From assembly GCA_040285855.1 (NCBI GenBank), contig JAUFOQ010000004.1:1240001-1304000 (forward strand): a DNA stretch of 64,000 bases, written 5' to 3'. Numbering within the stretch: the first letter of the stretch is position 1; every line of letters starts with the position of its first letter. The notes under the pieces were generated by a model, which was given only the letters and a program-made list of their open reading frames with translations, made no database searches and was not told the DNA's origin. The position numbers and the translations under genes were made by a program. Shown one piece after another: positions 3,001 to 59,024 of the stretch. Source of the stretch: Eukaryota sp. GEM-RC1 (Eukaryota).

Positions 3001-5807
3001 TGACGTGTCGAGTTCTAATTTTGAATTAACTTACTTGTTTAATATCTCGTCATTGCACTTTTCAAAAGGACAAAGCTATCACCACTGGTCTTGGAAACAG
3101 TCTGGATTTAGCTTACAACACGTTGGTGTTATTGTTGTTTTCGATATTGAGGCTTTGTCTACAGATTTTGTAAGTGTTTTTGAACACCGTACAATTTCAT
3201 TAAATATTGTAGGTAATTTATACTCCGATTTAACTTGTTCTATTGACTCTCAACAATTCACAGGAATTACTTCTAACAATTCTTTGTTCTGTGAAGATGT
3301 CATTATTCCAACATATCAAGAGTTTGTTGATCTAGAACTTTCTTTTGATGGGGTACTCATCAACTCAGTTGAAATTCAAGGAGAAGCATTTCTCGAAGAT
3401 GTCTGTTTTGTTTCATTTGTCGAACATCCTAGGATTAATTTTACTAACACTTTTACGAATAACTTAATGTTTGATGGTATCAGGTGTTGTAATGTTGACG
3501 TGTCTTTTTGTTCCGAATTTATCTCGCAATTTGACTTGATCAATGCAATGTTTGATACTTCTTTTGATATATTTCAAATTGTGATTACTACAAACACTAG
3601 TTGTCACGAATCCTATTATTACCTTCCTTTTGAACTGATTGCTAAAAATCAAACGCTTTCCCCTGCATATTCTTGTAAACAAGTTCCCAGTGGTTTTGCT
3701 TTTGCTTCAATGTGTACTATTGATCTGGTAATTCCACGAACAACTGAAATTCTTTTAGTTGCTCTTGAAAATCTGTTTATATTGGAATTAGAAATTTATG
3801 GGCATGTATCAGATTCTTGTTTTAAACCCTTTTCTTTTGGACGTGGTATTACTGCTCTTGGGGAAGTGATTGATGAAGATGTATATCTGGGGTTTGAAAC
3901 TGCATTGTTTAACTCAACGGTACAGTTTGAATCGTTTATTTCTCAGAAAGAAATGTTTTGGTCCACTTCAACTGTTCAATTTTCTACTGGTTTCTCCTCT
4001 CCAAATTGTTTCTACTCATTTACACCTTTTCTTGTGACTCTGTCTGCTTCTGATCCGACTTCTTTGGTTTTCAGTCAAACAATTGTTGAAGTCAATTCAA
4101 ATTATTTAAGTATTTCAATTCCCATGGTTTGCGTCGATAATGTTGGATTTTTTGTTGATTGCAATGGCTCTATTGACATTATCGCCTCTACTTTTAAATT
4201 CAATTCTGTCGTTTTCTTTTCAGATAATGTAATCTTCTTCTTTAATGAATTACCTCAATTACAGGAACATCGAGTTGATTACGAATTCAATTCCAGACTT
4301 CTTAATTGGAATGGCACGTTAGTTCAAAACTGTGCAGAATATTTAACTGTCGATCAATTGAACGTTTCCTATTGTGGTCATCAATATTATGGAGACCAAT
4401 CATGTACTCTTTTGAACATTACCTCAAAGTTTGTAATTCAGGAACAGTTCTACAATCTTACTAGCGAAGTTCTTCTTTCTGATATTACTCTAGTTACTGA
4501 CATTGAAGCTGGTATTAATATTCTAGATGACCGTTTGCTGGAGTTAGTCACGTCTCCACTCCAATCAATGACGATTACACTCTCCTATTTTTCTCATACT
4601 GCGACTATTGATCTAGTTTCAAATGATTGTCACTTTCCTAAATTGAATTCTGGACATGGATGTTTGTGTCCAAAAGGAATGGAATTTAATTATCTTGGTG
4701 AATGTGTGGAATGTTTTCTAAATTATTACTCAAATTCAGAATTCAATTCAGAGTGTAGATCTTGTCCTTTTCCTAGAATTACTCTTCAAAAAGGTTCTAG
4801 TGATCTTGACCATTGTGTTTGTCCTTTAAACACTCTAGATTCTATAGATTCTTGTTTACCTTGTCCTCATTTAGCTGAATGTGGATATGGAAATTTGACT
4901 GGAATTGAACCTGGTTTTAGATTAAATACTGATACTTGGGAACTAGATGAATGTGTGTTTTGGTATAGTTGTCATGAAAATTCTTGCAGATCACGTCATG
5001 CTTATGGAGATTTGTGTCAATATTGTACTGAAGATGCTGTTTTCAGCAAGATTTACTGTTTTAGTAATGAAAATACTTGGTTAAAAGTATTATCATTTAT
5101 TTGTTTCGTTTCTATTTTATTTGTTGCTGATAGGCTACCTGTTCAACTTTCTCTTGTTGATTCAAAGTTCAAGTATATTGAACTGGCAGCGTCATCACTT
5201 TCCACATTTGGTCAAAGGAGATTATTAGAACAGCTTTCGAACTACTTTAATATTCTTAATATCTTCTTTTTGTTTTGCCTCCGATTTTCTTCCGCAGGGT
5301 GTCTATTTGGGGTATTGCTATTGAATTTATATCTTCTATATTTCATTTTGATTCGTCACGAATATTGATTGTTTTTGTTCTGGTCTCACTGTGTGGACTT
5401 TCAAAAGTTGTATTATCACAATTTTTTAAAAGTTCTAATTTCAATGTGAGACATAGTGCTTTCTTACTGGGAGCGGTTCTTTTCTCTATCAATTTTCTGT
5501 TTGGTGCATCACTTTTTTTTCTTAATCATGAAGGGCCATCATTTTGGCAAATTCTATTCCTGAGTTTTCACTTGAGTTTTTTAACTTATGTGTTGGTAGT
5601 ACAACGTCATTCTCCTTATTTCTTATCACTGGTATGTTATTTTGTCGTCATTTTTGCTTCATTATTTGAGAGTTCAATTTATTCTATAATTCAAAATCTC
5701 ATAGTAGTTATACTTATCAGTTTCTCCACTACTACTATTGAGGTAATTCTTTTGGAATTTCTCTTCTTTTTAGTGTGTCGTATACTGTTAGTTTCTTGAA
5801 ATTGTAG
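1..5807 (+). pseudogene. Giant surface-protein paralog A (5' part outside window): CCGTFDSPC region, TIG-like and stalk type 1, Cys-rich block, TM type 1; damaged
   Basis: ORFs 5-1276, 1309-1491, 1517-2671, 2690-5368 and 5275-5799 are collinear with copies B and C. Out-of-frame ~1.3 kb deletion at 1486/1487, a small deletion near 1235, and in-frame TAA at 2669-2671 where C has GAA. The true stop is probably TAG 5805-5807 (…FLKL*), as in B, after restoring one T near 5750. Confidence 0.85.
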
Positions 5808-5832
5808 ACTTTAGAGCATTGTTTATTGGCTC
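5808..5832 (+). repeat. Conserved 25-nt element right after the stop codon (ACTT-x-x-GAGCATTGTTTATTGGCTC)
   Basis: Same sequence at 19430-19454 (+) and 28360-28384 (-); flanks diverge beyond it. Confidence 0.85.
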
Positions 5833-6843: not shown

Positions 6844-9800
6844 ATGTTCTTGACCGTTCTCCTTCTATTCTTTTGCTGTTGGGCACATCCATCTGTTTAT
6901 CGCTGGAGTGCCACAGCTGGGTCTTTGGTTCGACAGTGACAATTGGGAAACTGCTACAGTCCCTTCATCGTCTTCTTATGTCATCATTCCTCCTCAAACT
7001 GTTTCAAGTAGGGTAGTTATTGCGTCAAAAGTCGATATAACCTCTCTCACAATTTCCTCTAATGTTGTGCTTCTTTTCACGAACAACTCCACACTCACAG
7101 TTTCTGAACAGTTTTCTATCATCAATGGATGTACCTTGAGTTCTGATCATACTTCTCCTCTCTCATTTTCTTCTGTAAAATCTCTTGAATTGGATTCTGT
7201 GGACCTTGTTACTTTCTCTTCTCACAAACTCATAGTCACTGGTCTCTTTGACTGGAAACGTGGTTCAATTGATCTACATGGGTTCAGTGAACTTGTTCTC
7301 GTCAATTCTACTTCCGCTTCCCATTTTACAAGTCATTCTCCACTAAGTTCTGATCTTCTTCATGTCTGGGGATTTAATCCCGAAGGTCATCTTGGAGGTG
7401 GCTTGCAAGAATCTTCTGATGGTATATCTCCTGAATCTTATACTTTACCTGATTCTATTAGACAAGCTTCTCTTGGAAGAATCCATTCTATGATACTTTT
7501 GATTAATGGTGACGTTTACACTGCTGGAAGTAATACTTTTGGAGAACTTGGATTCAATGGTGGCGGAAGAAATATTCATGGTAAAATTGATTTATCGCAC
7601 ATTATTCAAATTATTTCATCATCTGAATCAAGTTATGCGTTAAGTGTGTCAGGATCTGTCTATTCTTGGGGACGTAACAGGAATGGCCAGTTAGGTATAG
7701 GAGATCGACTAATCAGACATACCCCCACTTTAATTCCAAATTTAAGTAACATTAAACAAATTGCTGGTAGGTATCTAACAGTTTTTGCTTTAACTAGAAA
7801 TGATGAAGTTTATGGGTGGGGTGCTGGGGCCAACAATGTTTTATGTAGTGATAGTACTAGTAATGTTCTTTCACCGTTGCTAATTGAATCTTTACAAAAT
7901 ATTAAATTTGTTGCTGCTGGCCTCAGTTCCTTCTTTGTTAAATCTAATGGATCGACTCTTACTTGTGGTTTAAGATTAGGTGAGACTGGATTCTATTCAA
8001 CTCCAACTCCATTTGCTAAGGATATTGAGTTTACGTTTATTGATACTATATATCTTCACGCTCTTGGCATTGATGTTAACCAGAAGCTATGGAGTTGGGG
8101 TTCGAATAGTCTTGGACAATTAGGAACTGGTGGGAACGCGGCTTCTGCAAGTCCGGTTCAAGTAACAAACATCGGGAAAGTCATCACGTCAGCTGCAGGT
8201 TGGGGACATTCTATTGCTGTTGACGTCAGCAATGACGTGTGGTCTTGGGGTTATCCAGAGGAGGTGTTGGGTAGGAGTTTTCCACCAAATTTGAATGAAT
8301 CAAATCCTGGCTTGATTCCTGGTTTATCTCCTATTATTTCCGGAATTAGTGCATATCATGGGAGCAATTTCGCATATTCTTCAGTTTCGGTTGTTGTGAA
8401 TTCAGTGGGGTCGTCTTCAAGTAACTCTAAAATGATTTTAAAAGGAAATAATGACATCTTGGGAAAAGTTAATGATAATGGCCTTCAACAGTTTAATCTT
8501 ATTTCTGTTCCAGTTTTTCTTTCTGGTTCATTGAATTTGACAAGTGATTCTTTCTATTTTCTGTCTGAATTCAATTTAAGTGGGCTTTTGTCTATTAATT
8601 CTCTAGTGGAAACTTATTTCACTTCATTTTTCTTAGGAGCTTCTGAATGTTCAACTCTTTCTTTAGAGTCTAATGTTTTTGTTGAAACTTTGTATTGTTA
8701 TTGTGGAACAATTGAAGGTGTTGGAGAATTGACAGTAAACACGTTGGTGTTTTGTTCTTCTAATCCTGAACTAAAATTAAGTAGAATTTCTATTGGTAAA
8801 ATGATGACTTCTGAATTAAATGTTGAATTTAATCTGACTACTGATTTATTAATTTCTATCAATGGAATACTTAAAATATCACAGGTAACTTTCTACTCTG
8901 ATTCGGATGTAACTGTTACTTTTGGTGGAAATTTAAAGTTGGTCAACACTTCATTGACTCTTCACATCGATTCTCGGCTAAATTCAAATATTCAATTTGA
9001 CCAAAATTCTAAAATTCAAATCACTTCCTCTTCTTCTAGTCTTGGATCAGTATATCCATTGTTTCTTTATTATGACTGGTCAGAAAGTCCTTCTGGAGAT
9101 GATCTTTCTGGTAATAATAATAATGTACTAGAAGTTTCTGGTGCTCAATGGAATCCTGATGGTTATTACCAATTTGAAATTGCCACTAACGTTATCAAAG
9201 TTCCAAATATTTCAGGTAAATTCGGCTGGGCATCAGCTACAATTTCATTTTCAATATGGTTTGACTCTGATTCTACCAATAGATTTGGATTTATTACTAA
9301 TCCTTCTGGTTGTGGATTAGTCCTTGGAGATCATTTATCTTTTGGTGATAAAACTATGAAAGATCTGTCAATTCCAAGAAATCAATGGATCTCCTTGATT
9401 GTTACTACAGATCATAATGGAGCTCAAATGTATGTTAATGGAGCTCTGATTGCTTCTGTCAACGGCAAGTATGGCTGTGATGAGTTTTCTGATTTCTTCC
9501 CCCTGGGATCTGTCTATTACAAGAGTGGGAATGACTGGGTAGGCTCTTCTGATCAGTTTTTTAAGGGTAGAATTAGAAGAGTTGCTGTTTTTACAGAGAA
9601 ACTTTCTGAAAGTGAAGTTGAAGCGCTGTCTAAAACTCAATTAGTATCGTTAACTCAAATATTTGGTGACGGAAGTATGGTTATTGAAAACTCTTCATTT
9701 CGCGTAAACTCATTGTCGACATTAAGTTTAAACAGTCTTTATTCCTATAATTCTTCTTTATTTATTGTTCCATCTGCTTTCTTTGGAGTCGTCAATACTG

Positions 9801-12800
9801 TTGCCAAAGAAGATTCAACCATTGAAATCCATGGCCGTTTCCTTTCTTCTGACTTCTTCCTTCCCAATCTTGAGTTAGAGAGTTCTTCATTTATTTCAAC
9901 TACTTTAGAGCTTCATTTTGATGTTATTTCTTTTTTAAATAGTGACTTTAGTTGTGACTGTTATTTAGAGGCTTTAGTTGTCTATTGGTTTGATGGTATC
10001 TTGACTCTAAGTGAAGCCAAAGTAAACGTCATCAATCTTTATGGTAACGAAAAGGTTTTACTAATAGAATCATTGACAATTACAGAGGAGGTGTTTTTTA
10101 ATAATTCTCTTACATTACATTCAAATAATTCTCAATTAATTCTTGATTCAGTAATTGTCAAGTGTACTGCGTTATCCTCTCTTTTCTTGTCTTGTTCTTC
10201 TGACTGTACTTCTGCTGAATTAAAATTTTCCAATGCTTTTGTATTGTCTGAATATTGTTCATTTGTTTCTAACTTTGATATCTCAAACTGCGCACTGTTC
10301 AGTCTGTTTTCATATTCCTTTTCCAAACAGAGTCTGTATTTACTTCTCACAATGTCCTTCAAATTGACGAACACGCAGAATTCTCTGTTGTTTCGTCCGA
10401 GTTTTCAATTGAAAGTGTCATTGATTCGTCTGACCCGTCCTTATTTATGTACTACAACTGGGCATACTCACTGAATAAAATAGACTTATCAGGAAATCAT
10501 GGTCTCAGTGCAATCATAATTCATGGGCCAGTATGGGAAAGTGATGACAATGGTGGTTATTTGAAAATCACACCTGGTAATACATTACTTATCCCAAACC
10601 TTCCTGGTGCCACAGGTTGGACGGGAACAACAATATCCTTATGGATGAACATTCAAGCAGGGGGTTTGGGACTGGATTTTGGTGGGTCATGTCGATTGAC
10701 TATTGAGCCTAAACGAGTTTGTTGGGGCACATTGTGTTCAACTGTACATTTTCCAACAACTTGGTTCCATTTGGCAATTAAATTTAGTCCATTCGATTCT
10801 TTAAGAACCATGCCTCGGGTTTTTATCGATGGAAGCTATAGAAATTCTATTGGTGCAGGGCATGGATATCATTGTACCAACCCTCCATCTCATTTCTCAC
10901 TATCAAGGATTCATCCTTCGGGTTCACAATTTCGGGGTATGATTCGTGCAGTTCAAGTGTTTCGCAGAATTTTATCAGCTCAGGAGATAGCCAACTTAGA
11001 ACTTAGCTTTCCAGCAGGGGTTTGGGGTCAAGGAAAGTTCTCTTTTATCAACTCTCATTGTGTTCTTTCTTCCATGTACTTTGAAATCCGCTATATGTCA
11101 TTAAATTCGTCATTCTTTCAATCAGGAGCCGTTATGCTTAGGCATCTTGAAGAACTTGACCTTAGTTCTAATTCAGAGATTGTCTTTGTTCATAGTCACG
11201 ACTTTGACTTTGATTCTACTGGTCTTGTTGTCTTTTTAGACTCAAGCAAACTTCGTTATGAAGTAATTGATTCTGCAACCAAGGTTCTTATTGATTCAAT
11301 TTATCTAACAAATACTTCTTCAATTATTACTGATGCGTCGCTTGTTATAAGTACTTTTCATTGGTTTCAGGGTGCGTTGTTTTCCCCTGGTGTTACATCC
11401 TTACAAAGACTGTTTCTTTATGGTGATTCTAAAACATGGGTTGCGGATTCGTTGATTATTGAAAATGAATTGTATTTCAATAATTCTCTTTCTTTTTAAT
11501 TTCTCATCTCAAGTTAATTACTGTTTCAGTTACTTGTTTTCCTGGTTCAGATCTTGTTCTTAATTCATCACTTTTTAATGAACGTTTACTTGAAATCAAG
11601 AACCATTTTCATTTAACTTCTAATTGTTCTCTCACTTCATTGTTACCAGTTCAAAGTACTGGAATTATTACTGTTTCAAATGACTCGATAATGACTCTTA
11701 AGAAGGCATGGGAACATAATCAAGGGGAGTTTCTGGGATTGGGAGAATTACGTTTACAACAATCTAAAGTGTGGCTTTTGGATGTTGTCTTTGGCATCAG
11801 ATCTATTACTTCTTCATCATCTATTTTAAATTTTGATAATTTAAATATTCAGGATACTGTTCTATTTGAAATTAGTGATTATTCGTCGCTCACTTTGTCG
11901 TCTACTCTAGAAGTTTCAACTGGTCACTTGACAATAGCTCTTATCGACAGTGAGCTCTTCTTTAATCAATCAGTGATCTCATCATCGTCAACAATTTGTT
12001 TAGCTGCATTCCATAGTTTTGTTCAATTGATGATGCCGCAATTTCATTTTGATTCTGTTAATTTCAATTTATCCATACTGGAATTGGTCAATAGTAGTGA
12101 CATTGTTGTTGAATCATTGTCATGTATTGATTGTTTTGTCCTTGGAACTCATCTGCTCTACGTTAACCATAGTTCATACATCAATTCGGGAAAGTTCTCT
12201 CCCTTTATACTTGTTTCTGAATATGCACAATGTTCATTCATTACTGGTCAAGTCTATTTGACTCACTCATTTGATTTCTACAGTCACGTGATTCTTGATG
12301 ACGTGTCAGTTTCAGAATTCCTGGTTTCTAGTGGATCCATCATTTGTCATTCTGATGTTTTGATGAGAAATACTGTGAGTATTTCCAATGTTTCGTTCGT
12401 TTTCAAAGACACATTGTCTCTTTTTGATACAATTTTTCTTTTTGATCCGCTCCTTGTTCTCTTTGATTTTCAAACAATGAAAGGATTTGGCACCATTGAT
12501 ACTAATATAGTTAATTCTGGAATTATTCGTCCATCACCTTATTTCAAATTTAACGACAACTTGTCTCTTTCTACTTCTTCCATCATCTGTATTCAAATCA
12601 ATAACACTACTTCTTATGATCATTTAATTGTCGATTTAACTTCTTTTTTAGATGGAATACTAGAACTAGAATTTGAGACAAATTATGATTCAACTGGGGA
12701 TAATTATACTCTCATAGAATCTGGTCTAATTAATGGTAAATTTAGTAATATAGTCAATCCTTGTGCTTCACTTATAACCCCGTTTTATTCAGAAACTTCT

Positions 12801-15800
12801 CTAATTGTCTCTGTAAATGATTATGTAGTGGACTTAAATCAAATTTCTTACATTTCTCCTTCTGGTATTGATGATCCTTGTTGTGGTACTTTTGACAGTC
12901 CTTGTGCTTCTTTTAGAGGAGTTTTAGAAAGAATGGGAAGAAAAGGAAAGGTTTATTTCCACGAGGGAACTTACACTTTTGATCAAGGATTGGGAATAGT
13001 ACGTGATGTTGATTGGGAAGTGATTGGTCTCGGTGACGTGATTATTGATGGAAGTGATGAGACTTTATTTGATATTGTTTCGTCTTCTTTGACATTCCAA
13101 AATTTAATTATATACGGTAATAATGTTCTTTTTGAGGTTTTTAATTCATCAATCAATTTTGATTTCGTGAGTGTTCTTTCCGTCTCTAATGATAGCATGT
13201 TTTTGATTGAAAATTCCTCTTTAACTACAACAAACTGTCTGTTTGACATTGAATCTTTTCGTCTATTTGAATGTCTTAAATCGTTAGTTTTTGTTGACAA
13301 TTCTATTTTTTCTGGATCATTATCTGACTCGTTAATCTCAATGTCATCATCGTCAATGATTGCTGACAATACTATTTTTCGTTACTTGAATGTTATTAAT
13401 TTGGTTGTTTCTTCTTCATCTTCTATTGAGTTCAGTCATTCATTAATAATGGAGATTACTGCTAACATGATATTTCAATTGGATCAATCAGATATTGTCT
13501 TAACGTCTTTAAATTGTTCTTCAGTCTTTTCAAAAGCCTTTGTTTACAGTAGCTTCGGAGCTTTTGTTCTAAACGCTGTCGAAGTTGACACATCAATTTC
13601 TACTATGTGGTTCAGTTTAATCAATTGTACATTTCACTTACAGAATTTGAATTTCTCAAGTTCTGATGGTGATGCTTTCAGTGTCGTAAATTCGACAGAC
13701 TCCTCTTTATCTATGGTTTTGGTTGTTAATTCCAATCTATCCCACTTTCTTAACGTCTTGAATTCAGGACTTTCCATCAACTCTCTTTCTCTTTTCAACT
13801 GCACAGGAAGTATACTAGAACATTCTGTCAGTAGCTCAATTACTACTCAGAATTTGACCATTACTGATTCATTATTTGATACTTTGTTTTTATTATCAGA
13901 TTCGTCCTTGAGTTTATCTTTGGGTAACATTGGGTCATCGTCGTTTAATAATAGTACACTTGTGCTTTATAACTCTACCCTGGAAATGGAAGAAGTTACC
14001 ATTGATTTGGTTTCAACTTCTATTTTCTTAGAGTCAATAGATAGTAATAGTACTTTTGAGAATTTTGTAATACGTAATTATGAGTTTCTCCAGTTTTTGG
14101 TTCTAACTCGATCCAAAACTAATTTTTTCTCTCTGTTTTTGGATAGTTGTCAACTTTATGAATTAAATCTTTTAGTGTATGATATTACTTTAACTGAGTC
14201 CTATCTAACACTTAAAAAATCTAATATTTCTGGATGTGCTTCTAATCAAGACTTTAAGTTGAGTTTATATTCAGAAAAGTCTTACCTATTCTTTCTTAAT
14301 TTTGACCAAGAATTCTTCTTTTCTTCATTAGTTTTAGACCATTCTAATATCACTATAATTTCATATTTCCCAGTAATTTCTAAGTCTGTTTCAATTGATG
14401 AAGAGTCTATTATACTGGGTAATGCTCCATTACTTGATCTTTCCAGATTAATTTCAAATGTTTCAATTTTTCCTTCACAACACTGCTGTAACACGTCTTT
14501 CTGACAAGTTTCTCTGAATTTTAATAACATCGAATATCTGTCAGAGTTACTGGAACTCACAGTCCCTAATAATGATGAATTCTCCCACAACTTTGTATTG
14601 AATTCTCTTGACTTCTTTTCAATGATGTTATTTCTTTCAATCCAACGAACTATTCTATTTGTTTTAATTTTACTATTTCTAGAATATTTTCGTTCCAACA
14701 TTTATTTATCCCCATTTGTCCTATTGAGTTTGTTAGTCTAGAACCTCCAACTAGAGGTGGTTTTGTACCACTTTTGCTTTTAATCTTGGGTTAGATCCTA
14801 TTGTTATTCATCATTCCACTGCTTTGATCAATCAAAGTCTTGAATATTCTTCAAATTATCATGAGTATTTGAACTTCTTCTTTTTGAAGGTCATGGTTGT
14901 CATGAAATGGTTCTTTCTAGATTAACTGATGCAGAAATTTTATATTTTAAATATTGTTTCAAACGTGCTCATATTCAAACTAGTTTTCCCAATCCTTTCC
15001 CTTTAACAGGACTATTGACTATTACAGCAACAGATTTCTCCACAAATTTTGAATTTTTTGCTATTCTTTCAAGCTTTTCTCAAGCGGAACTTCGTAATTA
15101 TACACACGAAGAAATTATTTTACACATTCCCTATATTTGTAATATCACTTCCACTGAATTTGACGTTTATTTAATAATCGGAAATCAGTCTAGTAATTCT
15201 TATCAACTCAATTTTGGTCCGCCAAGAGTTACTTATCAACCTATTCCTCTTTCTCCTTCTGGTGAAACTATTCTTTTACGTGATTCAAATTTTTCAAAAA
15301 TGTTGAACTGTTACCATAACTCATCTATTGAATTTTCAGTTAGTAGTGCTACTTTTGAAATAGTGCTTGATGATGAAGTAAATGTTAGAACTGGTTAATT
15401 GTATGGATCAACTGCGTTTGTAATCGATATCCAGTATTTTAAGGATTTCAATTTTTAATTTCTATTCCGGTCACGTCATTTGTTGCTAGAGATACCCCAT
15501 TTGTTTGTTTTGTCGGTATTGCTTGTGAAATTGAAGTTTATAGTTATCAGGAAGAATTCTCGTTTCTTGAAACTTATATTGAACCCAGTGTTCCTGATAG
15601 TATATATTTTCTTTATTTTGGTTCAAATGTTTCTTCTGCTTTTGTGACATTTATTTCTTATGTTCCTGGATTTCCACAAGATTTGAAAATTTGTGCACAT
15701 TTTGGATGTTTTTCTATTTTTAACTTACCTTTTGTTGTTGAACCGGCTTATTTATCTCCAAATCATTTCCAATGGTTAAATGAGCCTATAACTACCGAAG

Positions 15801-18800
15801 TTCTGGTTGAAGTTGAGGGCATTTCATTTTACAGTTTCTCTGTAATCCAAAACAGTTTTTATTTTGACAATTGTCCATCTTTGTTATCTTATCTAAGTGA
15901 ATCTTACATGATCTTTGATATGGTGATTTCTCAAATAGGAAATTGTTTATTAGTTGGATCTTCTTTTTAAATATTGTCCCATTCAACATGTCCATTGAAA
16001 TCAAGAATTTTATTATTTTTCCACCAGAGGTTAGATTTAATTCACAAATTCAATTTGTACTTAGTGAAGATATTTCTCATCTCTTCATAACACACGGAAG
16101 TCAAACTATTTCCGTACGGAATGGTGCCAATATTTTAAATTTGAAGGATTCTGACACCTTCATTACTCTTCACAGATACTCTCAGTCAATGAATGTCAGT
16201 TTTGTTACTTCTTTCATTTACTCATTAATTCCTGATGTGATTGAGGTAAATCACCCTCAATCCATTTTTATTGATCAAAACACCTTATTGTATGATTTAG
16301 ATGTCAGTTGTTCTGGTAACTGTGATTTGGCTTTGGATCATCTTCCGAACTCCACTATCAAGGTTTCTTTTACTGGTATTGAACCTGGATCAATTGTACT
16401 GGAGTTTTACGTCAACTATTATAATTCAAATTTCTACTTCCGAATCCCAATATCAGTAGAAAGACCTCCTGTATTTGAACTTTTAAGTCCAAATGTTGTG
16501 TTTACCTCTGTAAATTCTTTAGTTTTCATTCACAGTTACTCACATTTTGATTTGGAATCCTCTTTTCATTTGATGATTCTATTATTGAACCTACTAATGC
16601 TGAGCTCCTCTCCAGTTCTGATTCCTTCTTTGTTTACAGATTTGAACTGAATCTTACTTCCATGTCAGTTCTTGAAGGGGAATATGTCCAAGACCTATGT
16701 TGGAGTCAGATAGGGTTCAGAAGACAATTGGTTACTGAAATTAAAATATTTAATTTGGATTTCAGTAGTAACGATCAGGTAAGTGTTTTTGAACATCGTG
16801 ATATTTCTGTTCACTTCCGAGGAAATCTTACTTCAAAAGTGACTTGTTCTATTGATGGTCAAATCTTCGTTGGAAAAGTTGTTGATAATGTGTTGGTTTG
16901 CAAGAGTGTCCGGCTTCCAACATTTCAACAACACGTGCGTGTTGACGTTTACTATGATCAATTTCTTTTGAATTCTTTTGAACTTTCTGGTGAGGTTTTT
17001 TTGGAGGAGATATGCTTTCAAACATTTCATCATCATCCTTTGGTTAATTCTTCTGAAATTATTTCAAATCAGAACACAAATTTAATATTCGACGGCTCAA
17101 GATGCTGTAGTGTTGATGTTTCCTATTGTTCAGAATTAATGTTAAAAAAAGAATTAGTTACATTCGATTTTCCGTCCCTATTTGACATTCATCACGTTAT
17201 TATCACGTCTAATTCTAGTTGCGAAGATATTGATTTTGGACTTCCTTTTGAACTGATCGCCAATGATCACGCTATTTCACCTTCTATTATTTGTAAGCAA
17301 ATTCCTAGCGGATATTCCTTCGCATCAATGTGTGAGATAGATGTAATTTTTCCAAATACTTCTGAGATTACTCTAGTAGCTCTAGAAGATGTTTACTTAC
17401 TAGAAGTAGAGTTTTATGGATACAAATCTAATTCTTGTTTTAAACCTTTTCATGGGGAAAAGGTGTTACTTCACTAGGAGAAGTAATTGATGAAGTTGTT
17501 TATTTGAGATTTAATAATCAATCGTTTGATTCAATTTCAGAATTCAAACAATTCGTAATTGATAAGTCAACGTTCTGGTCATCGTCATTTCTTACTTTTC
17601 CCACTGAGTTGTATTCTCCTTATTGTTATTATTCTACTGTTAGTTATCCAACTGTTTTGACTGCTTCATCAGCATCATCTTTTGTCTTTCTAGCTGATGT
17701 AGTAGAACTAAATCCACAATTTTTAAACATTTCTATCCCAATTATTTGTGTTGATGCTTTAAATTTCATTGTTCACTGTAGTGATATGTTTACAGTAACG
17801 ACGTCAACATTTGAATTCTTGAATTTTGAATTTTTAAACAATTCATTGATTTTCTCTTTCCTGAATTTGATCAAACTAGGAGAACATTCATTATCAATGA
17901 CTTATGGGCAAAGTCAATTTTACTGGAATGGGATTATTGTTCAAAATTTCAATGAAATATTTGAAATTAGTGATTTGAGAACTAGTAAGTGTGATCATCA
18001 TTTTACTTTAGTTAATACGTGTACATCATTGGACTTTGCGTCCACATTAATAACTCAAAATCCTTTTACTAATCAATCGAAAATAATTTTGATGTCAGAT
18101 TTAAGTATAGATCTTGAGTTTGATACTTCAGTCCTGCATGTTGTTAATGGATCAACTTTGGAGATTATTGGACCTCCACATCAATCAATGACGATTACAC
18201 TTTCCTATCTGTCCCAATCTACTACTATCGATTTAGTTTCAAATGATTGTCACTTTCCTAAATTGAATTCTCGACATGGATGTTTATGTCCAAAAGGAAT
18301 GGAATTTAATTCTCTTGGTGAGTGTGTGGAATGTTCTTTAAATTATTACTCACATTTTGAATTTAATTCAGAGTGTAGATCTTGTCCTTTTCCTAGAATT
18401 ACTCTTCAAAAAGGTTCTAGTGATCTTGACCATTGTGTTTGTCCTTTAAACACTCTAGATTCTATAGACTCTTGTTTACCTTGTCCTCATTTAGCTGAAT
18501 GTGGATACGGAAATTTGACTGCAATTGAACCTGGTTTTAGATTAAATACTGATACTTGGGAACTAGATGAGTGTAATTTTTGGTTCAATTGTCATCAAAA
18601 TTCTTGCAGATCACGTCATGCTTATGGAGATTTGTGTCAATATTGTACTGAAGATGCTGTATTTAGCAAGATTTATTGTTTTGGTATGGAAAATACTTGG
18701 TTAAAAGTACTATCATTTCTTTGTTTTACTTCTATTTTGTTTGTTGCTGATAGATTAGTTATTCGACTTTCTATTGTTGAATCAAAGTTCAAGTATATTC

Positions 18801-19429
18801 GACTGGCAGCGTCATCACTTTCTACATTTGGTCAAAAAAGATTATTGGAACAATTTTCAAATTACTTTAATATTCTTAATATCATCTTTTTTGTTTTGCC
18901 TCCGATTTTCTTTCGTAGGGCGTCTATTTGGGTGATTTTCATTGAATTTTTATCTTCTATATTTCATTTTGATTCGTCACGAATGTTGTTTGTTGTTTTT
19001 ATGGTCTCAATGTGTGGACTTTCGAAAATCGTATTATCACGATTTTTTAAAATTTGTAATTTCAATGTGAGACATAGTGCTTTCTTACTAGGAGCGGTAC
19101 TTTTCTCTATCAATTTTCTGTTTGGTACATCACTTTTTTTTCTTAATCATGAAGGGCCATCATTTTGGCAAACTGTATTTCTGAGTTTTCACTTGAGTTT
19201 TGTAATTTATGTGTTGATAGTACAACGTCATTCTCCTTATTTTCTATCACTAATATGCTACTTTGTAATCCTTTTTGCTTCTTTATTTGAGAGTTTAATG
19301 TATTTTATAATTCAAAACCTTATGTTAGTTTTGCTTATCAGTTTCTCCACTACTACTATTGAGGTAATTCTTTATGGAATTTCTTTACTTTTCAGTATGC
19401 CGTTTACTTTTAGTTTCTTGAAATTGTAG
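6844..19429 (+). pseudogene. Giant surface-protein paralog B, full length (~4,190 codons): signal peptide, RCC1 propeller (~7360-8380), LamG (~9060-9640 and ~10443-11030), beta-solenoid, TIG-like, stalk type 2, Cys-rich, TM type 1
   Basis: ATG 6844 gives MFLTVLLLFFCCWAHP (signal-like). RCC1 motifs VYSWGRNRNGQLGIG and LWSWGSNSLGQLGTG; LamG motifs WISLIVTTD…MYVNG…FKGRIRRVAVF. About ten homopolymer frameshifts plus two in-frame stops: TGA 14502-14504 (TGT in C) and TAA 15396-15398 (TCA in D). Confidence 0.85.
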
Positions 19430-19454
19430 ACTTGTGAGCATTGTTTATTGGCTC
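19430..19454 (+). repeat. Conserved 25-nt post-stop element (copy B)
   Basis: ACTTGTGAGCATTGTTTATTGGCTC; matches 5808-5832 and the reverse complement of 28360-28384. Confidence 0.85.
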
Positions 19455-19690
19455 AAATTGTGGTTCCGATCATAGTTGGGATTCTTCATTTTTGTCATTG
19501 ATTCCTTAATTTTTTCGACTACACGTACACTTCAAGAAACGGTTAGACTAATATGTCTTATTTTTTTGAAAAGTGCTCTTGTGAGACTAAATTTGACCTG
19601 ATATTTCATAATACACCAACTATTATTTCTAAGTTATTTCCAAATGTTTCCTGTAACACTAAGGTATAGTGTATTGTTGATGAAGACATA

Positions 19691-21059: not shown

Positions 21060-21669
21060 GAGACATAAGTTTTAGTGCAAAAACTACTTTATACACCATA
21101 TTTACTCTAAAGTTGAACCAGTTTTGAATCATCTTTCAGAAAATGAATGTACTGATCAACAAAGAGGACATCTCCATTCTCCGTGGCTAAATTCGAGTCA
21201 ATCATTAATGGATTTTACTCCAGTAGATGTTTGTAACAAATCTTGCGTTAGTAGGATGTTGGATTCTTCTTTTAATCCGTTAACAGCTGCTGAAAAGCTC
21301 AAACACTCTAAGTATGACTCTCAAGTTGAAGAATTAAATCGAAACTCAAATTCCAAATTTGTGTTTCAACCTTTTGCTGTTTCTCTTTTTGGATCTATTA
21401 GTCCTGTTGGTGATCAATTTTTCAAGGATGTCGAAGAACTGTGTAAAGAAAAGAAGCGTAAGTTTGTAAATGACTGAATGGAAAAACCGTATAGTGTTTT
21501 CCATATATCGGAATATGCCTTTCTATTTCCCTCGATTAATTGAGAAATTGTACAAGTTTGGTGTGAAGGTTAATGTTTAAAAACGTAATCTTTTACCGGG
21601 TGGTGATGAAGTCGTTTGGATTTAATCATAGTATTATTTGTTTGTTTTTACAATTTCATAGTTTTGTAG
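21060..21669 (+). mobile_element. 3' remnant of an RLE-type (CRE/R2-like) non-LTR retrotransposon, including a putative T-rich 3' UTR
   Basis: HIYSKVEPVL…QRGHLHSPW…MDFTPVD…AAEKLKHSKY…FQPFAVSLFG follows the EP…RxD…W…D-x-T…(E)xxKxxKY…FxP…G pattern of RLE domains. After a frameshift it continues as WKNRIVFSIY. Confidence 0.75.
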
Positions 21670-24600
21670 GGCAACCCTCTTGTTCTAACTGTTAAGTCTC
21701 TTTATTCTTTCGGAGAACGTCTCTTTCCTGGTGATGTCATGTATTTATGTTTAAAATTGTTGTTTGAAATTCATGTTCTAAAGGATCCTATTAGTGCAAC
21801 GGTAACTATAAGTACCATCAATACTCTGGATATTGACTGTAAACCTGACGAATCCATCATCATTTGGCGTGCAATTCAACAACTTGAAGCCCTCAGAAGA
21901 CAGCAATCAACTGGTCAAGACGTCGACACTTCCTCTTTTGTTCTGTTTCAGCGTCAACAAACTCATTTAGCTGAACTTCATCGTGATTGTCTTGATGGAT
22001 TATATGCTTTTTGGACTGTGCTTTCAAAACCTAAAGTTGACTTAACTTTACTACCTTCAATTCTAGGAATAGTTCACAAGAGTAAACAAACAATTGTTTC
22101 TAGTTTTACTCAATTACTTCGTCAACATGGAAATCAACAATCACTACTCACTTCTTATGCATCCTATGTTAGAGAAGTTGAATGTGATGAAGAACGTGCT
22201 ATTGCTCTAGATGAACAAGCTCAGGAGCTATCTGCTAGTGAGAGAAATTCAAGTCAAGGAGCCAGTTCATATGCTGGATCGTTTACTATTTCAAAATCTG
22301 GAAAGAAGAAGAAAACAAAAAGAAGTTCAAAGTTTAATCTCGACTCAATGACAACTTCTGGTGGTCAAGAATCTAAAAGGAGTGCCATTGCTGTTCTTCA
22401 ATTCTCAGTAATAGTTGCTTTCATCATTATGACTCTCATTGCTGCTGCTTCTTTTCTTCTATCCGCTAATGTTCTGGCTTCTGCTTCAGATCGAATTGAC
22501 CAATTATATGAACTTTCCCATGTTCATTCTGTTTCTGAGTTGATTGGATTAACAGCTGGGCGTGTTTTTTTAAATTTGAATGGTCAAATCACTGAAAATT
22601 TCGCTAATGTCCTAATTAAAGAATCTGAACATTTGACTTTTCATTTGAGAAGATTATCTTTATTACACCCTTTAGATGACGATTACACTGAAGTTCCTTG
22701 TCCAAGATCAGACGCCAGGTCAATCAAACCTCCTTCCAGTGACTTACAAACAGAGATGCGAACACTCAGATTCCCAGTAATTCTTGTCAATAACTTTGTC
22801 CCTCTTTTAGAAGAAGCTAGAGTGCTTTCTGCCTGGAACTTGGGACTTGCACAAGCTTTACATAGTACTAGAGCGGGTACAATATTGGATTCTGGTACCT
22901 CTTTAACTTTTGAACATTTAACTAGTATTAGAGGAAGTTTGAATGGATTCTCTAACGCCCTTGACAATATCTATGATTGGTTAGTTTCTGATTCTGACTC
23001 TTTCTTCAGTCTTTCATTCGCTATTCAAATTTTAATGAATATTTTAATTTCAGTTGTCATTTTAGTTATTGGTTTTGTACTGTTCGCTAAATCTTTTACC
23101 AAAATTACTGATGAACGAATCACCATATTAAACTTGTTTTTGTATATTCCACAAACCGAAATTCAAAAATTGATGAATGATCCAAAATTTGATTATATGA
23201 GGAAGAAAAAAAGGAAAGCCAAAACTTCTTTTTCCGTGACTGCATCTTCTGATGAAGATTCCGATACTGAAGTTTCATGTAAATCTAAGTCAAAAATAGA
23301 TAACGATGTTTTGTTTGAATTACAAGAGACCAATTCCTCATCTTCAGAAGAGAAAGACAAGACACACGTTCCAGTTCCAATTTTAATCAATATTTTAACT
23401 ATTGCTTTAACGATCATCTGTCTTGCTATTGGAGGTGTATCAATTTTTCTCTTATTAAACATTACTAATGACAATGATGAAGTTAATTCTCAATTCCGTG
23501 TAGCACTCGATGCAATAAATACTGCTGCTGACGTGACCTTGATTGACCATGACGTGTCTGCTGCAATGCAGCTATTTACTGCTTTTGGTGACGATCAATT
23601 CCTACTCAAATATTTTAATTTAATTCATTCTGGGAGACGACAACGAGCTCTAACTAGTTTCCTTGCTCTTGACTTGACTGAAGATCAGTTATTGTCCATT
23701 TCACAGGTTGGTACTTATGCAAATGCGATTAGAAGACTCGAATTCATTTCTGGACGATTAATCTGCTCTGTTTTTGATGTTGATGAATCTCTTTGCTCAA
23801 GATTTAATGGTTTTAATTATGACGCTCAATTAGAGACTAACTATTTCCGAGACAAATTAGAATTTGACGATGTTTTCTGGTATTCTACTTTAGAACAAGA
23901 CCTTGAGAGGTCAGTGGACGATCGTTTGAATATAGCTAGGAATGCCCAGTATAATTCACGATTAGCTGCAGTTTTCCTCTCTCTATTGTTTACACTTGAA
24001 GGTACTGCTATTGCCATTGTAGACTCTTTGTTTGATTCTATTAATGAGATATATAATGGTGTTAGTTCCGAGTTCCTGTTTTTCTGGGCAGCTATTATTA
24101 GTACCACAATCATTGTTATAATTATAAGTGTTATTGGAGTTTTGAATCGAAAACGTTTACGTGTTGCTGGTTTCTTTTTGTACATCTTTGTTGCTTTATT
24201 TGTAGTTCTCATTGCATCAGCTGTTTACTTCTCCACTACTGCAGAATCTGTCTTTGTTCACGATATTTCTCCACTTATTATTGAATCTCGACGAGTTTTT
24301 GACATGGTTGTCGCTGTGGAGTGGCAATTTAACTTTCTACGAAGAAGATTTGATCAATTGACAGTTTCAAATACCTTTGAACATTTTGTGTCAGCTCAGG
24401 AGTCGTACCAAACTTTACGTCAACATGTTGCATCATTTGACTCTAGTTTTGTCTCTCATCCAGCATTGATACAAGCTATTGATTCAATCAACCATCAATT
24501 GGATTTGATTGACGGCAGATTGATGGAGTATATCCAGCGAGTACAAATCATTGCTACATTGGCCACGTATCACCTTCCCGAATATGAGTCATCAACTTTA

Positions 24601-25700
24601 GTTAACATTTCTTGGGATATTGACCAATTACCATTAAATGAAAGAAACACTTGGGTTTTGCCTCATGGATATAGTCTCAGCAATTCAGAAACAGATTTGT
24701 CAAAAGAGGTTGAATATTCAAAAAATACTTCCAGGGCTATCCTTACTTCTAAATATTTCCAATCTTTAACTAGAGATGTAGTTGATTCTTTAGCAGAAAT
24801 ACGAAAATTGTCAATAATTTAGAATTAACAGTATATTTGATTGTTGGTTTGCTTGTTTCTACTGTATTGTGCTGTTTCTTTATCGTGTTATCTGGACTTA
24901 AGCAAAAGTTGAAAGCCTCCCATGTTAAACAAAAGATTTCTTTTCCAGTAATGGTTAATTACACCAAACAGTATGTCGTTTCACTTTCAGTTTTATTCAT
25001 TATTCTATCAATGTTTTATTTCGGATCTCTCATTGGTTTTACTCAACTTCGACCTTTGCCCAGATTAATTCAAGATTATGGCACTAGATCAGCTCTAATC
25101 ACGCGATCTACAAATGATGTTGTTTCTGCATTAATTGATTCAGAACAACAGGTTCATTATTTAAATAATGCCAAAATTTCCCTTCATAGTCTCACACGAC
25201 TTCACCATGCTTTGGTTGTAAATCATATTGACAAGGACTTTAAACAGACAGAGTTACTTTTTGACAGTAAATTTATCAAGAACTCTAAAGCTATCTCCTC
25301 TTTGGATGAGAATCATGGCCTTCACAGTTTTTTAATTAATTATATTAATTTCGCTGAATTGTTCGCCACTCAAGATATTTCCATAGATTATTCAAATTCT
25401 AGTCCTGATTTGGCAAATCTTTTGATTCATTTTGATACTCTTTCTGAAATGTCATTGGAAGCTATCGATAACATTCACAGTTACTCAATTAAACAAATCG
25501 ACGTCTTTTCCACTTATATTATGGTCGTTTTCATTGGTTTTATTGTTGTTCTTGCGACTTCTTACGTTTTTGTATTTCGTACAATGTTGAGAGATTTAAA
25601 AGAAGAAGAGGTTTTAACACTGGAATTCTTGGAAATGATTCCTGAAGGTATTATGTCCAAAATAAGTGGTATTCAGAGCTTCCTTGCTACGATTCAATGA
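21670..25700 (+). CDS. TmcB/TmcC-like multi-pass membrane protein, lacking its N-terminal part; one frameshift
   Basis: Frame is open from 21670 (GNPLVLTVKSLYSFGERLFPGD…). FWTVLSK…FTQLLRQHGNQQSLLTSYASYVREVECDEE resembles the TPR-like segment of TmcB/C. There are several TM-flanked extracellular domains and twin motifs ERITILNLFLYIP and EEVLTLEFLEMIP. Adding one A to the run at 24804-24807 joins ORFs 21739-24822 and 24837-25700 (EIRKIVNNLELTVYLIVG). Confidence 0.7.
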
Positions 25701-28384: not shown

Positions 28385-31300
28385 CTACAATTTCAAAAAA
28401 CTAAAAGTATACGACACACTAAAAAGTAGAGAAACTGCAAAAGTATTACATCAACAGTAGTTGTGGAGAAACTGATAAGTATAACTATGATGAAATTTTG
28501 AATTATAAAATAGAATAGGCTCTCAAATGATGAAGCAAAAATGGTGACAAAATAGCATACTAGTGATAAGAAATAAGGAGAATGACGTTGTACTATCAAC
28601 ACAAAAATTAAAAAACTCAAGTGAAAACTCAGAAATACAATTTGCCAAAATGACGGCCCTTCATGATTAAGGAAAGAAAGTACTGTGCCAAACAGAAAAT
28701 TGATAGAGAAAAGTACCGCTCCAAGTAAAAAAGCGCTATGTTTCACATTGAAATTGTAATTTTTAAAAAATCTTGATAAAACGACTTTCGAAAGTACAGA
28801 CAGTGAAATCAGCACAATAACAAACAACATTCTTGACGAATCAAAATGAAATATAGAAGATATAAATTCAATAGCAATCACCCAAATAGACACCCTACGG
28901 AAAAAAATCGGAGGCAAAACAAAAAAGACGACATTTAGAATATTAAAGTAGTTCGAAAGCTGTTCTAATAATCTCTTTTGACCAAATGTAGAAAGAGCCG
29001 ACGCTGCCAGTCGAATATACTTAAACTTTGATTCAACAAGAGATAGTTGAATAATCAATCTATCAGCAACAAATAGAATCAAAATCAAGCAAATTAATAA
29101 TATCACCTTTAACCAAATATTTTCCTTACCAAAACAATAAATCCTAGAGGAAAAAGCTTCTTCAGTACAATATTGACACAAATCTCCATAAGCATGACGT
29201 GATCTGCAAGAATTTTCATGACAACTATACCAAAACACACATTCATCTAGTTCCCAAGTATCAGTATTTAATCTAAAACCAGGTTCAATTCCAGTCAAAT
29301 TTCCATATCCACATTCAGCTAAATGAGGACAAGGTAAACAAGAATCTATAGAATCTAGAGTGTTTAAAGGACAAACACAATGGTCAAGATCACTAGAGCC
29401 TTTTTGAAGAGTTATTCTTGGAAAAGAACAAGAACGACATTCTGAATTGAATTCTGAATTTGAAAAATAATTTAGAAAACATTCCACACATTCACCAAGA
29501 TAATTAAATTCCATTCCCTTTGGACACAAACATCCATGTCCAGAATTCAATTTAGGAAAGTGACAATCATTTGAAACTAGATCAATAGTCGCAGTATGAG
29601 ATAAATAGGATAGTGTAATCGTCATTGATTGGAGTGGAGACGTGACTAACTCCAGCAAACGGCCATCTAGAATATTAATACCAGCGTCAATGTCAATAAC
29701 TAGAGTAATATCAGAAAGAAGAACTTCGCTAGTAAGATTGTAGAACTGTTCCTGAATTACAAACTTTGAGGTAATGTTCAAAAGAGTACATGATTGGTCT
29801 CCATAATATTGATGACCACAATAGGAAACATTCAATTGATCGACATTTAAAAATTCTGCAAAGTTTTGAACTATCGTTCCATTCCAATTTAGAAGCCGGG
29901 AATTGAATTCGTAATCAACTCGATGTTCCTGTAATTGAGGTAATTCATTAAAGAAGAAGATTACATTATTGGAAAGGAAAACGACATAATTGAACTGAAA
30001 AGTAGAGGAAATAATCGAAATAGAACCATTACAGTCAACACAAAATCCAATATTATCGACACATTTTATGGGAATTGAAATATTTAAATAATTTGAATTG
30101 ACTTCAACAATTGTTTGACTGAAAACCAAAGAAGTTGGATCAGAAGCAGACAGAGTCACAAGAAAAGGTGTAAATGAATAGAAACAATTTGGAGAAACGA
30201 AACCAGTAGAAAATTGAACAGTTGAAGTGGACCAAAACATTTCTTTCTGAGAAATAAACGATTCAAACTGTACCGTTGAGTTGAATAATGAAGTTTCAAA
30301 CCCCAGATATACATCTTCATCAATCACTTCCCCAAGAGCAGTAAAACCACGTCCAAAAGAAAAGGGTTTAAAACAAGAATCTGATACATGCCCATAAATT
30401 TCTAATTCCAATATATACAGATTTTCAAGAGCAATTAAAATAATTCCAGTGGTTCGTGGAATGATGATGTCAATAGTACACATTGAAGCAAAAGCAAAAC
30501 CACTGGGAATTTGTTCACAAGAATATGCAGAAGACAGCGTTTGATTGTTAGCAATCAGTTCAAATGGAAGGTAATAATAGGATTCGTGACAACTAGTGTT
30601 TGTTGTAATCACAATTTGAAATATATCAAAAGAAGCATCAAACATTGCATTGATCGAGTCAAATTGTGAGATAAATTCGGAACAAAAAGACACGTCAACA
30701 TTACAACACCTGATACCATCAAACATTAAGTTATTCGTAAAAGTGTTAGTAAAATTAATCCTAGGATGCTCGCCAAATGAAGCAAAACAGACATCTTTGA
30801 GAAATGCTTCACCTTGAATTTCAACTGAGTTGATGAGTACCCCATCAAAAAAAAAGTTCTAGTTCAACAAACTCTAGATAAGTTGGAATAATGACATCGT
30901 CACAGAACAAAGAATTGTTAGAAGTAATTCCTGTGAATTTTTGAGAGTCAATAGAACAAGTTAAATCGGAGTATAAATTACCTTCAATATTGAAAGAAAT
31001 TGTACGGTGTTCAAAAACACTTACAAAATCTGTAGACGAAGCCTCAATATCGAAAACAACAATAACACCAACGTGTTGTAAGCTAAATCCAGACTGTTTC
31101 CAAGACCAGTGGTGATAGCTTTGTCCTTTTGAAAAGTGCAATGACGAGATATTAAACACGTAAGTTAATTGAAAATTAGAACTCGACACGTCATTAACTT
31201 CAGTAGGATTTAAAATAAGATCATTAACCAAGAAAACGGAATCTGGAAAGAAGTTACCACTAAAAGAGATCATGATAGCTTGAGGATTGGAAATAGAAAT

Positions 31301-57800: not shown

Positions 57801-59024
57801 ACAATTTCCTATTTATCGCATTCTGCTACTAGCAATCTGGTATCCAATGATTGTCACTTTCCTAAATTGAATTCTGGACATGGATGTTTATGTTCAAAAG
57901 GAATGGAATTTAATTCTCTTGGTGAATGTGTGGAATGTTCGCTAAATTATTATTCAAATTCAGAATTTAATTCAGAATGCAGATTTTGTTCTTTTCCTAG
58001 AATCACTCTTCAAAAAGGTTCTAGTGATCTTGACCAATGTGTTTGTCCTTTAAACACTCTAGATTCTGTAGATCATTGTTTACCTTGTCCTCATTTAGCT
58101 GAATGTGGATATGGAAATTTGACTGGAATTGAACCTGCTTTTAGATTAAATACTGATACTTGGGAACTAAATGAGTGTGTGTTTTGGTATAGTTGTCACC
58201 AGAATTCCTGCAGATCACGTCATGCTTATGGAGATTTGTGTCAATATTGTACTGAAGATGCTGTTTCTAGTCGAATTTACTGTATCGGAAAAGAACATTT
58301 ATTTTTTAAAATTCTTCTATTCATGTTTTTTGTTGTAGTTCTGTTTGTTGCAGATGTGCTCCTCATTGTCTTTCTTCAATCAAAAGTATTGTCACGTGCT
58401 TTGCGATTGTCCATCTCTTCTTTATCGTTTTTCCGATCATCTCAAATTTTGAAGCATCATTTAAATTATTCAAATATTTTGAATGTCTTTCTTTTCTCAG
58501 TTTCAGTCTTCAGTTACAAAAGAGTTTCCTTCAGTTTAATTTTTCTTGAGTATGTTTCATCTCTGTTTTATTTAGATAAGTCAATGATATTGTTACCTTT
58601 AATTGTGTGCTCTCTGTCGTTTTCTTCAAGATTTTGCTTAACAGAATATTTTAAGTTCAAAACTTTTAATATTTTCCATAGTTCCTTCTTTACTGGAGCT
58701 GCCTTTATTTCACTAAATTATGTTTTTGGAATGACTTTGTCTCATTTCTTTAGTCAACAATTGCCATTTCTATTATTTATTTTTGTTTTTATTCATATTA
58801 TTTTTGTTTTTTATGTCATATATGCTCAACGAACACTCCCTTATATCTTTTCACTTGTTGCTTATTGTGTCATAATCTTTGCAGAGTTGCTGCCCAGTTT
58901 AATTTATTTCATTGTTCAAACAGTTTCATTGATTTGTCTTTACTGTGTTTCTACTTCTTTTGAACGAGTTGTTCTTGGAATTAGTTCTTTAGTTTGTGTA
59001 CATAATTTCATGGTGTATGTTTGA
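45838..59024 (+). pseudogene. Giant surface-protein paralog D, full length (~4,390 codons) with three LamG domains (~48025-48610, ~49397-49985, ~50757-51340), stalk type 2 and a divergent TM type 2
   Basis: MIAIILILCCCAFAS signal, collinear with B and C. Many homopolymer frameshifts, a ~10-nt deletion near 48735, and in-frame TGA 49985-49987 (GGA in B). Confidence 0.85.

Follow-up and report, generated by a model that had tools for sequence, protein, structure and literature searches.

Concerted evolution by ectopic gene conversion leaves a tract that is more alike within a genome than its flanks or its homologues in sister species, and such a tract has low synonymous divergence (dS), an unchanged ratio of nonsynonymous to synonymous divergence (dN/dS) and a star-like tree. 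In the conserved recombination junction element of the Pneumocystis major surface glycoprotein (MSG) genes and in the mosaic variant surface glycoprotein (VSG) genes of trypanosomes, a shared conserved sequence is the junction for segmental exchange. Fornicata is the sister group of the skoliomonads, and the variant-specific surface proteins (VSPs) of Giardia are an expanded family of Cys-rich (CXXC/CXC) membrane proteins. Here we describe a Cys-rich coding block, block K, that recurs in paralogous genes within a stretch of 64,000 nucleotides (the window) from Eukaryota sp. GEM-RC1 (assembly GCA_040285855.1, contig JAUFOQ010000004.1, positions 1,240,001 to 1,304,000 of the forward strand; GC content 30-37%). 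The closest described behavior is that of the Plasmodium falciparum var genes, in which mitotic recombination takes place at identity blocks within homology blocks (PMC4270465).

Judging from the names alone, Eukaryota sp. GEM-RC1 is apparently Skoliomonas sp. GEMRC. Skoliomonas sp. GEM-RC (GEMRC) is described as a free-living anaerobic flagellate from a soda lake, placed within the sister group of Fornicata (PMC11316075). The window contains four copies of K (A, B, C, and D), each lying between an upstream stalk cassette (U) and a downstream multi-pass membrane module (T). We consider it probable that K is an island of recent ancestry between anciently diverged U and T modules. Repeated gene conversion is the most likely reason for its uniformity, and K is likely a homology tract for module exchange. 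Three features of gene conversion are found at K: dS is far below that of the flanks, dN/dS is not lowered, and there is phylogenetic incongruence across the block boundaries. DNA comparisons cover the four copies in the window, and the remaining paralogues were compared as proteins.

Extent and Identity of Block K

When B 18231-18660 is used as a BLASTN query on the window, exactly four copies are recovered, B included, at 92.0-94.9% identity. The matches to B are A at 4611-5040 on the plus strand (94.9%, 22 mismatches, no gaps), C at 29582-29155 on the minus strand (92.3%), and D at 57840-58264 on the plus strand (92.0%), so the four positions given in the original prediction are right to within a few bases. 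At about 490 bases, K is slightly wider than the 430-base block noted there. It spans 18174-18662 in B, 4554-5042 in A, and 57778-58266 in D on the plus strand, and 29639-29151 in C on the minus strand. In B this Cys-rich tract contains ...PPHQSMTITLSY...CQYCTEDA and encloses the Pfam Ephrin_rec_like domain. The left edge is sharp, with dense sites pairing A with C and B with D (AC|BD) ending at 18173/18181. The right edge is sharp for D, which diverges from 18663-18668, and a fainter similarity to D extends to B 18751.

The block had been called almost identical among the copies. This description holds for the core (B 18391-18570, plus strand), the most uniform part of K, where 11 of 180 sites vary and all are singletons, but not for the whole block, where copies differ by 5-8% (22-34 differences per 430 bases). 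Identity inside K is 88-98% for all pairs. Upstream (B 14900-18150) it is 92-100% between A and C, 61-88% between B and D, and 50-66% for cross pairs; downstream, A, B, and C are 85-91% identical to one another and D is 52-58% identical to them. In cross-type comparisons, the longest perfectly matching stretch measures 56-104 nt in K, compared with at most 14 nt in the end of the stalk and at most 10 nt in T.

K is a disulphide-rich domain with many invariant Cys residues, and it scores above the gathering cut-off of Pfam PF07699, Ephrin_rec_like (23.1 bits), in A (29.3), B (27.1), D (26.5), and the paralogue P0019 (27.1). Repeats and palindromes in K that might act as a hotspot amount to one 13-nt direct pair and one 22-nt inverted pair at 82% identity. 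A metagenome scan with a 30-base invariant piece of K returned no matches. Two unrelated paralogues on other GEM-RC1 contigs, P0005 and P0023, have the same frame change at a T run just past ...WELDECVFG in K; this frame change may reflect a sequencing error that recurs at the same homopolymer, or else a lesion that both paralogues share because conversion has spread it.

Topology Change Across the Block

Site patterns among the four copies favor AC|BD upstream of K. Between 17504 and 18170 there are 209 AC|BD sites and one site for each of the other two pairings, and 13 AC|BD sites lie within K. Downstream of K the counts are 14 for AC|BD, 16 for AB|CD, and 12 for AD|BC, with 256 D singletons. 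These counts do not separate the three pairings because D is saturated, and protein trees of the family were therefore used to follow the topology across the block (18 rows for U, 15 for T, 17 for K). In the U tree, B belongs to a clade with D, P0003, P0005, P0006, P0007, P0017, P0018, and P0020 (100/100), and A and C form a separate clade (100/100). In the T tree, B joins A and C (100/99), and D joins P0003, P0006, P0007, and P0010 (93/94). The K tree is star-like, with 2 of 14 inner branches starred. Approximately unbiased (AU) tests reject two alternative placements of B: alongside A and C for U (p = 0.0035), and with the T2 set, the membrane-module type of D, for T (p = 2e-14). B thus groups with D upstream and with A and C downstream, as the original prediction had proposed, and trees on either side of the block show the topology flip that it had named as support; an unchanged topology, which it had named as contrary evidence, is not seen.

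The stalk cassettes are of two types in the window. Type U2 is present in B (14919-18173, plus strand; left junction 14915/14919), which resembles D at 874 sites and C at 228, and in D (54520-57777, plus strand, left end approximate), with a B-D dS of 0.48. Type U1 is present in A (1487-4553, plus strand), where the left part has been removed by a deletion of about 1.27 kb, and in C (29640-32890, minus strand, upstream end approximate). The membrane modules divide differently. Type T1 is carried by B (18663-19429, plus strand), A (5043-5799, plus strand, with a 1-base frameshift near 5264), and C (28393-29150, minus strand), whereas D has type T2 (58267-59024, plus strand), whose DNA is 52-58% identical to that of A, B, and C, with dS above 1.4. 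A second conserved region, N-terminal and beta-helix-like (12240-14915 in B, plus strand), is common to A, B, C, D, and a further repeat unit, E, with dS of 0.17-0.51. Nearest neighbors shift within this region, and B is nearer to A, C, and E (dS 0.28-0.33; B-C 0.28) than to D (0.44).

Compared with C and D, copy B is a mosaic of three parts. It resembles C at 12240-14915 (294:138 sites), then D at 14919-18170 (874:228), and C once more after 18666 (250:30); neither junction statistic is reached in any of 1000 permutations. Maximum chi-square analysis locates the point at which B stops being D-like within K, at 18229/18230 when A is the alternative and at 18415-18433 when C is. B reads U2-K-T1 in frame in a single open reading frame (ORF) at 17504-19429 with domain order kept, and this copy has a D-type stalk cassette within an otherwise A/C-type gene. 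The putative exchange lies within a perfect-identity run in a region of raised homology, and its product is in frame with conserved domain order, as in var genes.

One account of this mosaic is a single reciprocal or unequal crossover in K that joined a D-like gene to an A/C-like one, with no further event. The location of the switch within K and the long identity runs there agree with this account, and the original prediction of B as a crossover product within the block is supported in that respect. A single crossover is nevertheless unlikely. Since B is A/C/E-like again upstream of 14915, at least two junctions are needed, the second near 14915. An unequal crossover would also carry the downstream flank with it, but the homology of A, B, and C stops about 25-33 bases past the stop codon, which fits conversion-like patches better.

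A reading as good as replacement of the stalk in B starts from a U2-T2 ancestor like D. The progenitor of A, B, and C would first have received a T1 module, and the common ancestor of A and C would later have gained a U1 stalk. B-D dS, at 0.44 for the N-terminal region and 0.48 for the stalk, fits this reading; a two-step replacement of modules in the A/C lineage and in D fits the dS values about as well as stalk replacement in B, and more than one copy may be the derived one. On both readings, each edge of K marks the end of an independent event. A and C part at a K edge too, the third such break: they have no differences over 235 bases of K (18416-18650) and then 27 in the next 110.

Several other observations concern these copies. 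The patch at 18651-18760, which encodes the first membrane helix just past K, is hypervariable (A and C differ at 27 of 110 bases, against 11.6% in the rest of T), and there C has seven sites in common with D. The start of the stalk (B 14850-15250, D 54450-54850) is the least conserved part in all copies, with B-D identity of 68-78% and a proportion of synonymous differences (pS) of about 0.57. The deletion in A (gap at 1486/1487, equivalent to B 13782-15050) removes sequence found in B, C, and D and includes the junction between N-terminal region and stalk. Together with the frameshift near 5264, it suggests that A is a damaged copy.

Silent-Site Divergence

Synonymous divergence was estimated by the Nei-Gojobori method (NG86) on a codon alignment of the last ORF, in which the upstream part for B-D is the last 222 codons. 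For upstream, K, and downstream respectively, dS is 1.62, 0.17-0.23, and 1.43 for A-D; 1.34, 0.20-0.26, and 2.39 for C-D; 1.88, 0.14-0.20, and 0.24 for A-B; 0.48, 0.26, and 2.10 for B-D; and 0.14, 0.08, and 0.31 for A-C. Downstream dS for B-C is 0.35. In sliding windows of 40 codons, pS in the core (B 18404-18553) is 0.00-0.14 in all six pairs, compared with 0.5-0.9 in cross-type flanks. Among codons for the same residue, 86-92% are identical in K and 46-60% in cross-type flanks (Fisher p from 6e-6 to 1e-13); for A-D the counts are 126 of 141 in K, 34 of 68 upstream, and 49 of 92 downstream. Independent draws from the codon usage of K itself, which is biased toward A or T at third positions, would give 63% identical codons. 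The original prediction had stated that synonymous sites are alike in the block and had looked to a dS trough as a check; the likeness and the trough are both present, and synonymous divergence is not equal to that of the flanks, the outcome that it had named as contrary.

The dN/dS ratio is 0.17-0.27 in K and 0.25-0.54 in the flanks, which we read as not lowered in K. This joint drop of dN and dS is what recent shared ancestry predicts, and not what stronger protein constraint predicts. Constraint acting on the nucleotide sequence of K itself, for instance because it forms an RNA element or a shared target of family-wide regulation, is very unlikely. Low dS by itself would be compatible with such a constraint, as would the unusually low GC content at third codon positions (GC3) of K. 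However, the predicted RNA fold of K is not unusual (z = -1.24; 12 of 100 shuffles fold as well), the fall of dN alongside dS speaks against it, and it leaves the topology change at both edges of K unexplained.

An artefact of assembly or polishing is also highly improbable. Short reads from about 30 paralogues could have been mis-mapped so that K copies look more alike or patchier than they are, and the assembly was made from Nanopore R9.4 reads with Canu, followed by Nanopolish and Illumina correction (PMC11316075). Residual errors do occur in the family: 9 of 11 B-D indels and two of three A-C indels are frame-shifting, mostly adjoining T runs. However, polishing acts only on near-identical copies and could not produce abrupt boundaries next to saturated flanks. 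The copies still differ at 22-34 positions per 430 bases, and long reads at 119x (PMC11316075) span each copy. Very strong purifying selection on a Cys-rich protein domain suits the invariant Cys residues and the standing of K as the best conserved part across the wider family, but as the sole cause it is hardly credible and is refuted by the likeness of silent sites, by a dN/dS that is not below that of the flanks, and by the drop of K to 27-40% identity in far paralogues and the sister species.

Family-Wide Pattern

Fifteen members could be typed for both modules. A and C are U1T1; B is U2T1; D, P0003, P0006, and P0007 are U2T2; P0009, P0011, P0012, P0013, P0021, and P0022 are U3T3; and P0016 and P0025 are U4T4. 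Among types U1 to U3, protein identity is 68-97% in K, compared with 25-37% in U and 18-38% in T. K is 53-66% identical to the U4T4 type, even though the U4T4 flanks are about equally distant, and its identity falls to 27-40% against far paralogues in GEM-RC1 and against the proteins of S. litria and RCL. Identity of K is 68-97% within the main GEM-RC1 subfamily and 27-33% to the S. litria and RCL proteins, which may belong to another subfamily. Because K diverges in far members, its uniformity in the main subfamily appears to exceed what constraint would produce and fits concerted evolution. D and its near-twin P0006 differ at 1 of 128 residues in U, 8 of 164 in K, and 4 of the first 46 in T; this is suggestive of exchange localized to K, although the sites are too few to count as evidence.

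Protein searches find close matches only among proteins of Eukaryota sp. GEM-RC1, many of which are encoded on the same 2.8-Mb contig, with more distant matches in Eukaryota sp. TZLM1-RC and TZLM3-RCL. A profile of K and T matches 28 proteins among 1.84 billion representatives. Ten of these were looked up, and include six from GEM-RC1, two from TZLM1-RC, and one from TZLM3-RCL; two further matches, in other protists, are weak and involve Cys repeats. In the searches made here, the family was confined to skoliomonads. Judged from titles and the openings of abstracts, no paper among the Skoliomonas literature listed is on this gene family, and the main text of the genome report, its supplements aside, does not mention gene families, "cysteine-rich" or "surface protein" (PMC11316075).

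Proposed Mechanism and Points Against It

Homologous recombination between paralogues would start in the tracts where unlike copies have 50-100 identical bases in common. Only K and the conserved N-terminal region offer this, and they appear to be the only substrate for homologous exchange. Conversion tracts would keep K uniform. Tracts or crossovers ending at the edges of K would transfer a complete module, stalk or membrane, to another copy without disturbing the reading frame. B may have arisen when its stalk cassette was replaced, or it may be an intermediate of two successive module replacements in a local gene cluster. The original prediction of a homogenised recombination anchor is supported by the dS trough, the topology change, and the long identity runs in K. 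We infer the anchor role because K holds the only long identity runs between cross-type copies.

Several points weigh against gene conversion and module exchange at K. No recombination event has been observed, and the start of exchange at K is inferred. Fourteen of the 15 typed paralogues have a fixed stalk-membrane pairing and B is the sole mixer; module mixing is therefore rare, and exchange at K would be rare or mostly selected against. GC3 is 0.13-0.16 in K (18170-18661 and its copies) and 0.23-0.29 in both flanks in all four copies; this lower GC3 indicates a stronger codon bias that accounts for part of the synonymous similarity, and it is the opposite of what GC-biased gene conversion predicts. 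The groups for the AU tests were chosen after the similarities had been seen. Homogenisation across the family rests on protein identities, whereas DNA was compared for four copies. A Nanopore assembly polished with short reads could blur or shuffle single sites in a multi-copy block such as K.

Protein Architecture and Gene Models

The protein is a predicted giant surface protein with a multi-pass membrane domain. The probable whole gene of copy B spans 6870-19429 on the plus strand and encodes a signal peptide, RCC1, LamG, the beta-helix-like region, the stalk, K, and the membrane module in ORFs split by frameshifts. In the S. litria homologue P0032 (2446 aa), a single protein runs from a signal peptide and RCC1 repeats through K and T, and two of the three RCC1 regions in the window (R2 and R3) begin with signal-peptide-like sequences. 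These observations indicate that each unit is probably one gene of about 12.5 kb.

About eight helices are predicted in the T module from a hydropathy scan and a poor AlphaFold model. The AlphaFold2 model of K and T, based on a 14-row alignment, has a mean predicted local distance difference test score (pLDDT) of 42.6 and a predicted template modelling score (pTM) of 0.24, too poor for a fold search. The T modules match no Pfam family at E values up to 1 and have no usable match in the ESM Atlas. In Pfam, the stalk ORF of D matches no family and the stalk ORF of C has only a TIG match below the cut-off (16.1 bits); Beta_helix is below its cut-off (12.8 bits) on the N-terminal ORF of D.

Frameshifts split each giant gene into four to six ORFs, and public gene models for the family are shortened accordingly. 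Relative to sister copies, frame-shifting indels of 1-2 bases lie at 13129, 14621, 14773, 14875, 15452, 15964, and 16556 in B and at 3339 and 5264 in A. They are probably residual Nanopore homopolymer errors, and real pseudogenes are possible. Introns of 15 nt of the heterotrich type were considered as a cause of the ORF breaks and rejected: 7.9 kb contains two GTA...TAG candidates, and neither is at an ORF junction. The real genes, probably about 12.5 kb long, deserve re-annotation.

Genomic Neighborhood

The window contains five repeat units: A (1-5832, truncated by the window start), B (12240-19455), C (35555-28359, minus strand), D (51838-59024), and E (from 61314, truncated by the window end). 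Coding regions for RCC1 and LamG (Laminin_G_3) lie one 5' of each unit, at 6860-11699, 40212-36414 (minus strand), and 45851-50990. Between the tail-to-tail units B and C is an intact ORF of 1027 aa (21739-24822) with a TmcB tetratricopeptide repeat (TPR) domain (PF25474, E = 3e-20) and several membrane helices, flanked on both sides by a 171-base inverted repeat (21267-21437 and 27414-27245, 93.6%). The ORF at 42211-43722 has three arrays of an 84-base (28-residue) tandem repeat at 42665-43428 with 73-80% matches, and it resembles a ribonuclease-inhibitor-type leucine-rich repeat protein by eye only.

Comparison with Known Systems

A homology block under concerted evolution that mediates module exchange is a known pattern; what is new here is its probable occurrence in an uncharacterised family of giant proteins restricted to skoliomonads. 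The family is a quantified example of modular surface proteins, in which two conserved tracts are probably homogenised while the cassettes diverge to saturation and are, apparently, occasionally exchanged whole and in frame. The host, a free-living anaerobe described only recently, is sister to the group to which Giardia belongs, and the family is therefore a place to ask if recombination-driven surface diversity predates parasitism. A bolder proposal, that K is a dedicated junction of programmed surface variation in a free-living metamonad and, together with the conserved N-terminal region, serves to swap stalk and membrane cassettes among about 30 giant genes during clonal growth, is quite unlikely in our view. 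If true, it would mean that cassette shuffling of the var or VSG kind existed in the sister lineage of Giardia's group before parasitism.

As in concerted evolution generally, K has low dS, a dN/dS that is not lowered, and a star-like tree. Unlike the general case, homogenisation here is limited to a coding island of about 0.5 kb between two cassettes that escape it. Like the Giardia VSPs, the K family is an expanded Cys-rich surface-protein family in metamonads with a conserved segment adjoining the membrane anchor. However, VSPs have one membrane helix and a conserved short tail, whereas these proteins are giant and their membrane module is multi-pass; in Pfam, K belongs to Ephrin_rec_like rather than to any VSP family, and no sequence relationship between the two was seen. 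The MSG and VSG systems supply an expression site and underlie antigenic variation in parasites, whereas for the K family neither an expression site nor switching nor a host is known.

The likeness to var genes is closest. As described for var, the genes are large paralogues for surface proteins with low overall identity, exchanges fall in short perfect-identity tracts within locally raised homology, and products are in frame with domain order kept, often with more than one crossover per pair (PMC4270465). In contrast to the present locus, var events were seen directly in clone trees, and the identity blocks are 4-48 bp long with breakpoints spread over many of them (PMC4270465). Here, one block of about 490 bp, together with the N-terminal region, lies between two modules, and one mixed product is found among 15 typed members of the family, in a free-living organism without a known link to antigenic variation.

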